A stretch of DNA of 64,000 nt, from the NCBI GenBank assembly GCA_964016885.1, contig OZ024744.1, positions 74,028,001 to 74,092,000 of the forward strand, written 5' to 3'. Each line of letters starts with the position of its first letter. The first letter of the stretch is position 1. Positions 2,440 through 60,240 of this stretch are shown piece after piece. Made by a program: the position numbers and the translations under genes. Under the pieces are notes generated by a model. It was given only the letters and a program-made list of their open reading frames with translations. It searched no databases and was not told the origin of the DNA. Origin of the DNA: Eledone cirrhosa (taxonomy: Eukaryota).

Positions 2440-2950
2440 TATTTAATGTGTAAGCATGGAAACGTGCGAGAAGATACAAATTTCACTATAAATTGAAAAA
2501 AACGATAAACATCTTTAATTTATTTTCGGACCTAGTTGGGTGCTCGTCAGAAGACGTGTATATTATCCAAACAACCACAAAGAAATATGTATTTGATGGG
2601 TATATATACCGATTCGTTTTTAGTATTATTCTGAAATGGACATAATAATATGCATATAATTAGCGCTCGTGTTTTATAACTAATTAAGATGTTTGCTATA
2701 TATAATATATATCTTAATTGCTAACACGAGCGCTAATTTCATGCAAATTAGTACTTCCGTTTCAGAATAATATTACCAGCGAATGGTTAATGATACTCAT
2801 CAAATACATGTTTCTTTGTAGTTGTTTGGCTGATGTACACCCCTTATGATGAGGGTCCAATTAGGTCCGAAAATTGATTAAAGGTGTTTATCATTTTACA
2901 CCGAAATTCGCATCTTCTGCCATGTTTACATGACTACATATTAGATATGT
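2440..2950. mobile_element. Fold-back (inverted-repeat) HHR-containing non-autonomous element
   Basis: Diverged arms of about 250 bp (2440-2690 and 2710-2950) around a TA-rich centre. Each arm has an HHR core, and ATGCAAAT lies at 2741. Confidence 0.8.
2509..2557 (-). ncRNA. Type I hammerhead ribozyme (minimal)
   Basis: Minus strand acgtctt-CTGACGAG-cacc caacta ggtc-CGAAA-ataaat-TA-aagatgt; mirrored degenerate copy at 2838-2887 (+). Confidence 0.75.
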
Positions 2951-3176
2951 GTATATATATGTGTATATCTATGTGTATATATATGTGTATCTATGTGTAT
3001 ATATATGTATGGTGCAGTCTCAGTTACCCACACATACGCACACACACACACACACACACACATATATATGTGTGTGTGTCTGTGTGTGTGTGTGTGCACG
3101 TGTATGTATGTGTGTATCTGTGTGTATCCATATATATATATATATATGGATACACACAGATACACACATACATATA

Positions 3177-3768
3177 GGATTCCTTTTCCTTTGAGCACAT
3201 TATTGACAGGGAATAACGAGAGTCTATGGCTCCGTTAATTTATCGTGATATTTCGCTCTCTCTCTGTTTGGTTGAGCACACTTCTTTGAGTGGTTTTTGA
3301 GCTGCCCTTTCTAGCAGCTCGTCCCTCAGATACCACTGGTTCACTGCCCTAAACACGCTGTGACATCTCTCTACCGCGTGCAGCTGGACGGTCGCTTTAG
3401 ATTCACTTAGAGTTGTCTGGAATGTATAGTCTTACACACGCTGATGAACCATAGGCTATTCCATTTCAGTCAACAACTTACTGGCGAAACAGATCTCTTT
3501 AGATTTGTACGCGTGTGTTATATAGTTATAGAGGTGCGTATATACATTTTAATTTATATTTTTAATTATTGTGTGTCTACCCTGCCTTCCATAGATTATA
3601 CATTCCATACACGGGTGGTTTTTCCCTGTTTTATTGATGGAGCACTATCTCGCTCTAGTGTGTTACCTTTTCAACATATTGTATTTTAAAGAGCCCAAGA
3701 TTCCTTTTCCTTTGAGCACATTATTGACAGGGAATAACGAGAGTCTATGGCTCCGTTAATTTATCGTT
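3177..3768 (+). mobile_element. Retrozyme-like element, monomer about 520 bp with about 70 bp terminal direct repeat
   Basis: 3177-3247 repeated at 3699-3768; ends in (TA)n; internal HHR; second copy at 29172-30062 on the minus strand. Confidence 0.85.
3434..3518 (+). ncRNA. Type I hammerhead ribozyme
   Basis: acacacg-CTGATGA-acca...tggc-GAAA-cagatct cttt agatttg-TA-cgcgtgt; hairpin stem III and GUA cleavage triplet; homolog at 29530-29612 (-). Confidence 0.85.
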
Positions 3769-4449
3769 ATATATATATATATATATATATATATACATAT
3801 ATATATATATATATATGTATATATATAGAGAGGGAGAGAGCGAGAGAGAGTTACCACACATACGCGCACACACACAGACACACACACACACACACACTCA
3901 CACACACATATATATGTGTGTGTGTGTGTGTGTATGTGTGTATGTACGTGTGTATATGTGTGTATCCATTTATATATATATAGAGAGAGAGAGAGAAAGA
4001 GATAAATATGTGTGTGTGTATGTGTGCGTGTATCACACATATATATATATATATATATGTACATGTGTATGTGCGTGTATGTGTTTGTGTGTGTGAGTCT
4101 GTGTGTATATATATAAAAACAGGACTGTGAGTGAAATCAATTATGTCTTATTTATTATGATTTTTTTTCATGTTTTATTGTGTTCTTTAAGTTTGCTTTG
4201 GAACAGTTAGGTTCGTGTATCCCTAAATCGAGATATTCCCTACCTCATCTGCAGAATAAAATTGATTGTAGCAATGGCCTATTGTTTGAGCATTTTCTAG
4301 TGGTTGCCAAGTATTGTAAGAGTACTCATAAACCTCCAATGATGGATTTAAGAAAATTATTTTACGGTTAAATCCTGATAGTTTTCTTTGTTAATTTCAT
4401 ATAGGCTGTATCTGTGTTTATTTTTTATTTTTATTTTGCTACTTGTAAA

Positions 4450-4700
4450 ATGTTCATTGATAATCTCCTCGTTTTATTTAAGATTCTATATAGAATTCTA
4501 ATATTACCAAGAAATATTTATTTATCAAATTGTGCTACATGTATTCTATCTATTACGAGAGATGCACTTTAGTCTTGATGTAACTGCTCGGCCAAACGTT
4601 GAGAAAGTGTCGTGTTTATGTACGAGATTATAAATTGAGTTCAAATGTATTCAATACATTTGTTGTTCAAAGTATTTTCTGTAGATTGCTAGTTTGTGGT
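4450..4700 (-). pseudogene. Highly decayed PLE GIY-YIG endonuclease fragment
   Basis: Minus-strand translation SYINTTLSQRLAE...LVILEFYI resembles the YIGxTxxxLxxRLxEH...LxxLEAxxI motifs. Confidence 0.4.
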
Positions 4701-56889: not shown

Positions 56890-59800
56890 ATATGTGTTTC
56901 TCATTCCCTACGGTTTCCGCCTCAAGTTTCACCCCACATCTTACCCTGCTCCCACCACTGAGCCCATCCTTACCCGGTCCTCTCGCCAGCTCATGCGGGC
57001 GACCATTCGATCAACTCTCGCCCAAATCCGATCTCTCGACCGAGATCTCCCCAAGGCCTACCTCCATCTCTCCTCAACTTGCCACCCTTTCCTCACCCAA
57101 TCCCTTATCCAATTCATCCTTTACCTCAATCGCCGCCTTTTCAATTTCCTCACTTCCGTAAAAAAAACACAAACTCGACGCTCTCCGCTCCCCGCATGCC
57201 GTAATCACCCATACTCATATCACCTCCAACCCTAACCCCTCTATCCTGTCACCTACCACCCCATTTCCTTTCCCCACCGTACCCCAGGACCTACCACTCT
57301 CAGAAGCTGAGTGCTCCCTCCTCGCCCGTGGTTTGCGTTTCATACCAACCACATCTATCTGCGACGAGTTCCGCACACGTGCCGAGATTGAAGGATTCCT
57401 CCGTCGATTATAGCTGAAAGCTTTTTTTAACGACACGCCATCATCGACACAGACGGATGACTTCATTCGTCTCAGTCGCCGCAGTCAAATTGGACGCCGA
57501 GCCCTGGCCAATTCAGCACCCTCGACTCCTTTGTACTTGCAGGCGTATTGTGAATTGGTTCTTTTTCCACCAGCATTCTCGTCGCTCTAACATCACGCGA
57601 ACTGAGCTCTCCGCTCTTCGCAACCTTCGGCGACGTGATGACATTGTCATCAAACCCGTTGACAAAGGTGGCACTGTGGTGGTTTGGAGCGCTGACCTCT
57701 ATAGGGCTGAGGCTCCCCTCTAGCTTCACAATACCCTTTTTTTACCGCCCTTTATCCTCTGATCCCACTCCTGGCTAGCAACAAATTCGTGTCCTCCACC
57801 ATCCACGAGCTCATCTCCTCTCTCCTACCTCCCACAGCCACCAACTTTATTGTACGCATCCCTCACACATCCACCATCGACTTCCTCCCAAAACACACAA
57901 ACAAAATAATCCCGGCCGTCCTATCGTTTCTGCGTGCAACTGCCCTACCTAGATAATTTCTCAATATTTAGACACCATCCTCGCCCCGTTGGTCAGCAAT
58001 CTCCCCTCCCACATCCACGATACAAATCATGCCCTTAGATTCTTCAACTCTTTCTCCTTCCCTCCCGGACACTCCCGCCATCTCTTTACCCTGGACATCA
58101 CCTCTCTCTATACCGTCATCCCTCAAGATGACGGCCTCCGCGCTCTTCAGCACTTTTTAGATTTACGCCCTACCCCTAACCCCAGCACTACCTCTCTTCT
58201 CCGTCTGGCTGAGCTTGTTCTCACCCTTAATGGATTTTCTTTTTCGGGTGAAATTTATCAGCAGGTTTCTGGGATAGCGATGGGGACCAGAATAGGCCCA
58301 AACTATGCCAACTTGTTGTTGGCTACGTCGAAGCCCAGGTCTTCTCCCAGTATGCTGGAACTACTCCTGAGCTATACGGTCGTTAAATCGACGACTGTAT
58401 CAGCACCACCTCTCTATAACGAGAACAGCTCGACTGTTTTCGTTCTTTTGTCCAATCTTTCCATCCTGCTCTCAATTTCACCGCCTCCGTCTCCGATGCT
58501 TCTGTCGCTTTTCTAGATATCTCTCTATCTATTAATCACTCTCATCACACCCTCTCTACTTCCATCTTCATTACACCAACAGACTCCCAATCTTATCTCG
58601 ACTTCACCTCCTCCCATCTAACCCACACCAAACACTCCGTAACCTATTCACAATTCCTCCGTCTTCGTCACCATGTAGCCAGGACGACGATTTCGTAACC
58701 CATTCCCTTCGCATGGCTTCCTGCTTCATCCAGCGTGGATATCCCCCCACCCTGATCCAAGCTGCTCTCACCCGCGCCCGTGAAACAGACCGTACCACAG
58801 CCCTCTCACTTCACCGCCGCCCTCCCAACACCCGTGTACATTTCTCTCTCACCTACCACCCCATCACCCTACCACTCAAGCGACATATCCTCCTTTCCTT
58901 CTGTATCCTCTCTTCTGACTCCGTCATTTCTCGCTTTTTTCCCAAACCCATCCATTACTGCTTTTAAGCGCGCCCGCAACCTCCGTGACCTCCTGGTTTG
59001 CAGTTCCTTTTCGTCCTCTCTCACGACTCCACCAGGCCCTCACCATTGTTCCTGTTCTCGCTGCAACACTGTCCCTTTATTTGCACCACACTTACAGGCC
59101 CTAACGCGTCTTTCCATATCCGCCATTCCTTCACCTGCACATGCACCCACGTTGTCTATGCCATCCGGTGTTCCCTTTGCGGGTCTTTATATATCGGGCA
59201 AACGGGACGCCGATTGGCGGATCATTTGCCGAACGTTTGAGGGACATACGACTCGATTTGGATACTCCTGTCGCCCGTCATTTCTGTTCTCCTGGTCATT
59301 CTTCCCTACATGTTTCAGTCCTGTGTGTCCTTTTACATGATGGATCACAGGTTTCGCACACCAGGACTGAACACAGTCTGATTCACTGCATTGGGTCCTA
59401 TTCCCCTCTTGGACTCAACTCACCTCCCCAATTTCTCTAATACCCCGTCCATAATCACACCCCTATCGCTTTCTCTTGATCATTAACATCTTCTCTTACA
59501 ACTAATACCTGCTGACTATATATGCTCACTCCACTTTTCCCTTCACTGCTCTGTATACACACATATACACCCTTGTATTTACATACATTTGCTCATAGCT
59601 TTGTACTTACATGCACACACACTCTTTTACTCACATATACACACACATTCCTTTTAGCTTCGTACGGACGTATAATAACACACACACACACTCACACACA
59701 AGCACATGCTTACGCACGTGCACAAGTATAGCTCTTTTTACAAACCGTTTTTTTTCCATTTCAGGTAGACGCGCTCCCTCATCTACTTTTCTAAAAAATA

Positions 59801-60055
59801 AATCATACACAAAACGCCAGCACCAACAGTTTTGCAAGAGATGTCAACATGAATGGAGCTCTTATTTGTATCTAAAGACATTTTTTTCCAATTACATCCG
59901 GCTCGTACCCTCAAACTATCTTATTTCTCCTGCTTTCTTATGGAGGACTAGCGTCGGAAACGTTAAGATCCTCTTTCTGCTATATCAAGCATTAACCTAA
60001 TATATACCTTCCATATACTGTACCGATTGTATTGTTATTTCTGTTTACTTTTTAC
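56890..60055 (+). mobile_element. Near full-length Neptune-like Penelope element (decayed RT plus Zn-finger/GIY-YIG)
   Basis: IPYGFRLKFHP, IVIKPVDKGGTVVV, PGRPIVS, FTLDITSLYTVIP, QVSGIAMGTRIGPNYANL, CSRCNT..FTCTCTHVVYAIRCSLCGSLYIGQTGRRLAD; 3' pLTR ends in (TA)n. Confidence 0.93.
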
Positions 60056-60140
60056 ATATATATATATATATATATATATATGTGTGTGTGTGTGTATTTT
60101 ACAGATAACGAGGGATCAGTGATGCATCAAAACACAATTT

Positions 60141-60240
60141 ATAAACATATTACATATGTTTTACCGACGATCAGCTCAAGGCACGATCTATTATAGATCG
60201 AATTTGACTCAGCATTCGCAAGGTCCTCAGATATGGTTAT
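60141..60240 (-). ncRNA. Hammerhead ribozyme with long stem II (GAAA box mutated)
   Basis: Minus strand ataaccatat-CTGAGGA-cc..(cgatcta taa tagatcg hairpin)..ggt-AAAA-catatg-TA-atatgtttat. Confidence 0.7.

Follow-up and report, generated by a model that had tools for sequence, protein, structure and literature searches.

The stretch of DNA analysed here (the window) covers 64,000 nucleotides (nt) of the genome of Eledone cirrhosa (assembly GCA_964016885.1, contig OZ024744.1, positions 74,028,001 to 74,092,000) and is crowded with short inserts carrying hammerhead ribozyme motifs. In all probability, these inserts are the hammerhead-bearing 3' ends of coding Penelope-like elements (PLEs) together with units of 320-640 nt copied by PLEs, and one family among them, family P, possesses a rewired core that is predicted to self-cleave. 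The coding PLE types that carry hammerheads are Hydra, Neptune, and one unplaced type (family L), while the non-coding 320-640-nt units are likely copied by Penelope enzymes. The initial annotation of the window had proposed a diversified, TA-targeted PLE/retrozyme system, and this view is supported. Systems of this sort have been published before (PMC4209133, PMC7229834, PMC8557442, bioRxiv 10.64898/2026.07.22.740005), and the menagerie itself is remarkable mainly in its scale.

Intact type I motifs were defined as CUGANGA, GAAA and NUH blocks in C-G-S order with three stems and a descriptor score of at least 20. The window (35% GC, with many microsatellites) harbors 12 of them, against a mean of 0.07 (maximum 1) in 30 Markov shuffles; a narrower type I scan returned 11 against 0.1 in shuffles. 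When variant and decayed cores are included, 35 recognisable hammerhead cores are found in the 64 kb. The rate of roughly one hammerhead per 3 kb given in the initial annotation is a fair one, since the densities are one per 5.3 kb for intact canonical motifs and one per 1.8 kb for all 35 cores. A genome sample of forty 10-kb stretches at round coordinates (400 kb) contains 32 intact motifs, against none in all five shuffled sets, and the window is about twofold denser than this sample. Stratified by contig class, the sample leads to an estimate of ~227,000 intact motifs (bootstrap 134,000-334,000) in the ~3.0-Gb genome, U3-A8 and permuted forms excluded, that is ~76 motifs per Mb or about one per 13 kb. 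The axolotl, whose genome is much larger, has the highest published count found, 120,000. A set of 106 motifs falls into 32 clusters, of which ~27 are judged to be real sequence families, each with a different paired stem I. As the scan itself requires pairing, the conservation of stem I across families rests on the shuffle control; the U3-A8 swap in families E, M, and O is a further instance of stems kept while the sequence changes. Judged by these features, the type I motifs of families A-D, F-L, and N and of the Neptune pLTR are real hammerheads, and their self-cleavage is predicted.

Ten of the 15 hammerhead sites listed in the initial annotation are intact canonical motifs in the descriptor scan, with cores at 2550-, 3441+, 20487+, 27400+, 28806+, 30937+, 31225-, 32843+, 42241- (with a 64-nt stem III region), and 43685+. 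The site at 28022+ had also been read as a type I hammerhead: its core, at 28026, is UUGAUAA, the U3-A8 variant, which is the majority form among 30 family copies. The sites at 29530- (core 29605), 30608+ (core 30614), and 60141- (core 60230) belong to real families, but they are decayed rather than intact. Four degenerate cores had been proposed as well. The one at 13068 belongs to a real family and is truncated at its core (13077+); that at 41692 lies in a real element whose core is in fact at 41661 (UUGAUAA); that at 42746 corresponds to a core at 42750 within the pseudo-long terminal repeat (pLTR) of a coding PLE. At 13211, only the half formed by GAAA and stem III is present, and a core was not found. 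Cores of families O, P, and R and the motif of a Neptune pLTR at 21943- were absent from that list. The suggested check against Rfam does not recover the motifs: hammerheads are absent among the matches listed for the window (150 of 241) and, at gathering score, in five loci. The Rfam scans gave just microsatellite-driven miRNA matches and a tRNA-derived piece.

The closest published counterparts of these motifs are the minimal hammerheads of PLEs (PMC4209133). Both sets share many consensus families per genome, a palindromic stem III, the U3-A8 covariation (families E, M, and O here; the variant core was published for Schistosoma PLEs), and opposite-strand pairs 100-700 bp apart. The published genomes hold 2,000-9,000 copies each, whereas in E. 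cirrhosa many motifs have long stems II or III and family R has a fixed U4A change. In family R, CAGAAGA is the majority core in 30 copies and the stems are intact; its type I fold is found in the window at 11795-11949, 45174-45310, and 52606-52760, all on the minus strand. Another family has CCGAAGA (U4C) as its core in each of the three copies found (L020:2447, L030:817, and L046:4759; L numbers designate sampled loci).

Six families repeat head-to-tail as non-coding units: C (327 nt), E (~320 nt), F (~480 nt), B (521 nt), P (532 nt in subfamily P1), and D (635 nt). In the window, family B forms a partial tandem at 3176-3772 (+, intact core 3441), with a second copy at 29146-29942 (-) whose core at 29605 has lost G12. 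Family C forms a head-to-head insertion at 20073-20675 (cores 20205-, decayed, and 20487+) and a compound insertion at 30135-31053 (cores 30287-, 30614+ with a C3U change, and 30937+). Families D and F are partial tandems at 26812-27716 (+, intact core 27400) and 28590-29148 (+, intact core 28806), respectively, and family E is a head-to-head insertion at 27756-28232 with U3-A8 cores at 27932- and 28026+. Most copies in the genome are 1.x-mers; consecutive units with complete hammerheads occur at some P and D loci and at locus L041, which contains at least four 311-nt units in succession. By their head-to-tail non-coding units, families B, C, D, E, F, and P fit non-LTR retrozymes. Metazoan non-LTR retrozymes have the same non-coding, low-GC units with type I hammerheads, and they were proposed to be non-autonomous PLE derivatives, a PLE origin being argued in 2026 (PMC7229834; bioRxiv 10.64898/2026.07.22.740005). 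In contrast to them, the units described here, known from DNA, fall into dozens of families and mostly occur as scattered 1.x-mers and mirrors whose PLE-type tails lie on (TA)n.

The simplest competing view holds that every family is a 5'-truncated end (a solo pLTR) of a coding PLE and that no independent non-coding element exists. It does apply to family L and to the Neptune and Hydra pLTRs, and probably to family G (31078-31350, -, intact core 31225), which groups with a hammerhead from the pLTR of a coding Hydra element (locus L055). Furthermore, genome searches scored the best 40 of 1,000-3,400 candidates per family, so that rare coding copies could escape. In the six tandem families, each unit is preceded by another copy of its own 3' end, because the units repeat head-to-tail with periods of ~320-635 nt. 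Remnants of open reading frames (ORFs) were found upstream in none of the matches of B (0/13), C (0/80), D (0/48), E (0/89), and F (0/40), and in 1 of 199 for P, while circularised units of B, C, D, F, and P code for Met-initiated ORFs of at most 50-105 amino acids. The statement that all families are 3' ends of coding PLEs is thus contradicted for six families, and as a general explanation the solo-pLTR view is improbable. It retains some force elsewhere: G, H, N, O, and R are known from short copies only and could be solo pLTRs, which weighs against extending the retrozyme interpretation to them. Mostly known from short or few copies, families A, G, H, I, J, K, M, N, O, and R may belong either to coding PLEs or to non-coding units.

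The coding elements themselves are represented in the window by decayed copies and isolated ends. A decayed Hydra-clade PLE spans 5942-10025 (+), with ORF remnants at 7026-9316 and an inverted 5'-truncated copy at 5942-6998. A second one, at 22624-26571 (+), exhibits the RWK and DKT motifs, a divergent RT4 motif, and ORF remnants at ~23079-25869; it starts with a partial pLTR (22624-22814), its 3' pLTR ends on (TA)n, and decayed cores are found near 22722 and 26488. A third, at 34424-37202 (+), harbors a GIY-YIG remnant, a pLTR ending on (TA)n, and a decayed core at 37020. The initial annotation had labelled such elements Nematis-like, a label that does not hold: the coding elements show the signatures given for the Hydra clade in PMC8557442, namely RWK, DKT, a divergent RT4, and a CxCX5C linker. 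RWK and DKT are both present in the window ORF 23079-23624, and DKT also in the sampled locus L051; the divergent RT4, the CxCX5C linker, and the CxxC and CxH of the C-terminal GIY-YIG domain were identified by eye in loci L051, L031, and L055, the linkers of the window elements being partly decayed. A Nematis assignment of the elements at 22624, 7026, and 34424 would require a CX2-5CxxC linker and a canonical RT4, and the related ORFs show the Hydra forms. By these motif signatures, the three elements are placed in the Hydra clade. Remnants of Hydra ORFs amount to 18 kb of the 400-kb sample (~4.5%). No Pfam model matched the PLE reverse transcriptase (RT) fragments, a weak GIY-YIG match alone being returned, and a metagenome scan with a Hydra ORF found no relative. 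The published Hydra-clade PLEs, including Hydra-1_Obim of Octopus bimaculoides with its (TA)n target and canonical hammerhead, share with these elements the RWK, DKT, RT4, and CxCX5C features, the C-terminal GIY-YIG, the type I hammerhead, the (TA)n target, partial tandems, an inverted 5' copy, and an optional tail; one octopus Hydra family is described there, against many divergent families here (PMC8557442). A minus-strand segment at 20714-21073 weakly matches Hydra ORFs.

The initial annotation was right that a Neptune-like PLE is present. The element at 57953-60056 (+) is decayed, with ORF remnants at 57953-59337, a C-terminal endonuclease with a Cys linker, a pLTR reaching (TA)n, and a decayed core near 59940; its RT3-RT4 motifs resemble those of DreriNep1, a placement made by eye and without a tree. 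A 5'-truncated end of the same type lies at 21799-22623 (-) and retains an intact minimal hammerhead (core 21943) with a palindromic stem III. At 22623/22624, this end and the Hydra element that follows are joined 5' to 5' without TA between them, a single case that could result from a two-sided insertion using two different RNAs, or from a deletion. Family L is present as a solo pLTR at 42615-43000 (+, decayed core 42750) and as a fragment at 33496-33691. Its parent is a 3.1-kb coding PLE with a C-terminal GIY-YIG domain, and a PLE ORF lies directly upstream in 24 of 93 matches; the initial caveat that some inserts would be pLTRs of coding PLEs was therefore well taken. The coding element (L131:1669-5791 and L133:1580-5246) has 94 homologues, mostly unnamed and up to 55% identical, and matches no clade in the text of Fig. 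S1 of PMC8557442.

The association with TA microsatellites is a property of the 3' ends. A (TA)4 run lies at most 300 nt downstream of 65 of 82 motifs, against 27% of random positions, and the ends touch TA directly in family D (47 of 47 full ends), family L (53/63), and family O (56/62), compared with 1 of 17 ends in a control based on a short interspersed element (SINE). The inserts had been described as bounded by (TA)n; this holds for their 3' ends, while the 5' ends often adjoin an inverted copy or other sequence. The comparison with SINEs, suggested at the same time, gives a mixed outcome: the ends of D, L, and O are enriched, but direct contact is seen in just 14 of 53 ends of family C and 1 of 3 of family A, and in a second SINE control 7 of 12 ends touch TA. 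The TA enrichment is not uniform.

Copies are 5'-truncated and form partial tandems, and often an inverted copy is attached to them head-to-head, with a junction that differs between insertions; this combination of truncation, tandem, and inversion was already published for PLEs (PMC8557442). The families further possess two fixed 3' ends, one long and one short, and inverted insertions display one of each. Among the head-to-head insertions of eight families, 62 of 65 combine a long and a short end, two have short ends on both sides, and one has two long ends; without family O, the count is 45 of 48, and in subfamilies P2 and P4 the rule is observed at all nine resolvable loci. Several reservations apply: the count of 62 in 65 omits 25 head-to-head insertions with one end in neither class, the two classes were defined from the same data, and the ends of subfamily P3, which has an internal TA run, are unscorable. 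The rule suggests priming from both sides of the cut. The Poseidon element of Anolis cuts and extends both strands in vitro, and its two RT start sites bound the genomic tail (PMC11167929); because of this, two cut ends priming at two sites would be a natural origin of the two end classes. In that assay, no difference in start site was observed between the strands, while the genomic rule implies one. The long/short-end rule goes beyond the published accounts that were searched.

Following this scheme, the GIY-YIG endonuclease would cut both strands of a (TA)n tract, and both free DNA ends would prime reverse transcription at different fixed sites of the element RNA, giving a long and a short end. 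One or both cDNAs would run on over a tandem or circular template and thus produce copies of more than one unit with variable stop points. The two cDNAs joined at their far ends would form a head-to-head mirror, whereas extension from one side alone would leave a one-sided copy. Unit-length RNAs would be released from multimeric transcripts by the hammerheads, many of which would act as dimers because their stem III is a short palindrome. Three published results weigh against this explanation: one of nine Xenopus retrozyme dimers was cleaved in vitro (bioRxiv 10.64898/2026.07.22.740005), the minimal hammerheads of PLEs cleave poorly (PMC4209133), and hammerhead cleavage is dispensable for insertion in vitro (PMC11167929).

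The mirrors might instead arise from a single cDNA folding back as a hairpin, followed by second-strand synthesis, or from later gene conversion. A single template readily explains why the arms of several older insertions are nearly identical: they resemble each other more than either resembles other copies in family M (98-99% against 89-97%) and in family H at locus L007 (100% against 92%). Near-identical arms would also be expected if both primers used one RNA or sister transcripts, and in young or star-like families the comparison of arms with other copies cannot separate one template from two. Plain fold-back alone leaves the two different fixed outer ends in 62 of 65 insertions unexplained, and the two end sites match the published pair of start sites (PMC11167929). 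Fold-back or conversion therefore remains a minority view, doubtful but deserving consideration, beside two-sided priming. That the palindromes are miniature inverted-repeat transposable elements (MITEs) of DNA transposons, or chance matches in AT-rich sequence, is scarcely credible. TA-flanked inverted arms do resemble TA-targeting MITEs. In these insertions, however, the inversion point varies by copy, the arms are unequal, and most copies are one-sided or tandem, and the motif counts exceed those of shuffles more than 100-fold.

Family P differs from all the others by the organisation of its hammerhead. In the window, its 532-nt non-coding unit forms a partial tandem at 46968-47628 (-), with a permuted, split-core motif at 47024-47139, cores at 47039 and 47571, and predicted cuts 3' of 47083 and 47615, the upstream copy being 5'-truncated. 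Both CUGAUGA cores have GAAA upstream and none downstream, so that the order of the blocks is the non-circular S-G-C: cleavage block, then GAAA block, then core block. The spacing is fixed: GAAA lies 16 nt from the cut and 23 nt from the core (14 and 23 in subfamily P8). Seven pairings are identified from covariation. Three of them are stem I, stem III, and a stem II of one pair; in a fourth, an upstream strand pairs with the strand preceding GAAA and extends stem II. The others are a hairpin, a helix bridging stems I and II, and a closing helix downstream of the core. Together with the hairpin and the two segments of stem II, this closing helix forms a four-way junction, and the linker between stems I and II is 3-4 nt long. 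The core block is not intact: zero or one pair follows CUGAnGA, the rest of stem II being provided by the upstream strand. An assignment as a type II hammerhead (GAAA upstream, closed loop) was rejected: the strand after CUGAUGA does not pair with that before GAAA.

The alignment behind this model retained 71 of 168 matches after filtering and aligned 64 rows, 5'-truncated or deleted rows being dropped. Across the 64 copies, 92% of the cells are paired and 14 pairs exhibit two-sided changes. Among 21 distinct rows, including the distant subfamily P7, 95.8% of the cells are paired against 32-47% in slid controls, and two-sided, compensatory change affects 16 of 33 pairs (4 of 6 in stem I, 2 of 5 in stem III, and 5 of 6 in the bridge). 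As related copies inflate such counts, the view by subfamily is fairer: pairing is kept in 108 of the 110 majority cells of five subfamilies, which also share a single majority letter at all 11 core positions. Subfamily P8, a weak match to the model, keeps every helix with other letters and has a GUC site. Identity among the best-matching copies is 97-99% in P1, P2, and P4, indicating that the family moved recently. The model has 4 matches in the 400-kb sample, three of which were used in building it, and they suggest a copy number in the tens of thousands; a comparison with two contig runs of one sample likewise shows that family P is highly repeated.

The nearest known relative of this architecture is the type-SGC hammerhead, or HRIMA-1, which has the same S-G-C order, a full core, the same 3-4-nt link between stems I and II, and the same helix tying the other sides of these stems (PMC10085705). 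That report describes type-SGC from metatranscriptomes and metagenomes alone, with no genome of a known organism, and its scheme assumed uninterrupted core blocks. In family P, by contrast, one strand of stem II no longer adjoins CUGAUGA but lies upstream, and two extra helices create the four-way junction at the core. Family P would thus work like a type-SGC hammerhead without being a member as defined, since the stem II strand does not directly follow CUGAnGA; its cleavage is predicted.

Two other explanations of the family P motif have to be weighed: a hammerhead in the usual circular order assembled from the blocks of neighbouring tandem copies, or a dead fold that binds a protein. Dimer cleavage is indeed usual for PLE hammerheads (PMC4209133), and folding algorithms that disregard pseudoknots miss the structure (z -0.55 to -1.9). 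On the other hand, the spacings are fixed, the three extra covarying helices make sense within one unit only, all catalytic positions are kept across subfamilies whose stems have turned over, and an equally short link joins stems I and II in the validated type-SGC ribozymes (PMC10085705). Taken together, these two explanations are unlikely, though not negligible, and on balance an active family P hammerhead is the predicted outcome, with somewhat more than even confidence. Its activity may be low, because the single stem II pair next to the core is weak or absent (A-C in P3, missing in P8), and the covariation events are few and related, since about seven subfamilies underlie them; both points count against the prediction.

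The Naiad PLEs provide a possible source for family P. They were reported to lack canonical hammerheads, Naiad_Ovul being flagged 'HHR_half_core', and they target (TA)n as family P does (PMC8557442), although family P has no ORF. Examined by eye, the published consensus 3' ends of Naiad_Obim, Naiad_Ovul, and three Acropora Naiads can be folded into the helices of family P, the one-pair stem II being absent or mismatched. The octopus Naiad ends are identical to P1 in the hairpin loop (8 nt) and in two linkers (3 and 6 nt). Given the fold and linker letters shared with these ends, a Naiad pLTR is the most likely origin of family P. This proposal is weakened by the nature of the comparison, five consensus ends inspected by eye rather than aligned, and by the motif scans of the sampled loci, which did not find the Naiad ORF (N-terminal GIY-YIG, CxC, and DKA). 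A 24-letter motif of the published octopus Naiad end has no match in the genome with up to two mismatches. By the lack of an ORF in the sampled loci, family P is at most a non-coding relative of Naiad PLEs. Two apparent periods of 2.8-3.2 kb proved to be local duplications and not ORFs. Literature searches, with subscription papers outside their coverage, returned no report of permuted hammerheads from animal genomes or Naiads.

The remaining families of the window are mostly short. Family A forms a head-to-head insertion at 2444-2945 (cores 2550-, intact, and 2846+, decayed) and has 4 matches in the sampled sequence. Family N consists of two short insertions, a head-to-head one at 12947-13157 (core 13077+, with the 5' strand of stem I truncated) and a second at 37231-37406 (core 37361-). 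Family O is the commonest short palindrome, with 23 matches in 400 kb, and usually folds back within its own hammerhead; the window copies lie at 14347-14542 (+, truncated inside the hammerhead with its 3' half alone), 26595-26782, and 37463-37667, and a fuller copy (L066:938) has a U3-A8 core. Head-to-head insertions of families H (32588-33040; cores 32694-, decayed, and 32843+; with the short end on the left and the long one on the right) and J (43180-43860; intact cores 43267- and 43685+) are accompanied by a tandem and inverted insertion of family M (40466-41898; U3-A8 cores 40848- and 41661+). Family I, at 41947-42470 (-), has a long stem III, a core at 42241, and a predicted cut near 42128. 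Family K, at 60110-60480 (-), has a core at 60230 that lost G12, and intact relatives in loci L013 and L039.

A GAGYRCY motif, often closing a hairpin, is found downstream of the hammerhead in the tails of D, E, G, H, N, and O; it is located downstream in 27 of 92 stem I types and upstream in 9, the motif having been picked after the data were seen. The tail of family G resembles the 3' end of Hydra-1_Ajap (PMC8557442). Two long palindromes, S (20911-21242) and T (21361-21600), contain no core that could be found. Other repeats of the window include decayed pieces of long interspersed elements at 10117-11698, 50931-51312, and 60591-63939, presumably RTE-like, with RVT_1 and an AP-type endonuclease, two of which end beside TA tracts. 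A tRNA-related short repeat is present at 43861-44148 and 46024-46244 (Rfam tRNA, 36.9 bits at 43861-43933), and a SINE-like repeat at 5228-5436 has many copies, with 47 matches in 400 kb.

The hammerhead swarm of E. cirrhosa extends a known system to an unusual scale, unseen by Rfam; the word 'ribozyme' has zero occurrences in the 2026 repeat annotation of Octopus vulgaris. A broader reading combines four elements: a family P active outside the six-permutation scheme, the missing ribozyme of Naiads across animals, thousands of non-coding copies in this genome, and an end rule that reflects two-sided priming. Their holding jointly is considered slightly favored. A split-core hammerhead in an animal retroelement, if true, would call for a revision of two published views, the absence of hammerheads from Naiads and the need for uninterrupted core blocks; family P also offers natural variants together with an exact predicted cut site. 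Finally, the long/short-end rule makes the origin of the tandem and inverted structures of Penelope elements testable in an existing in vitro system.

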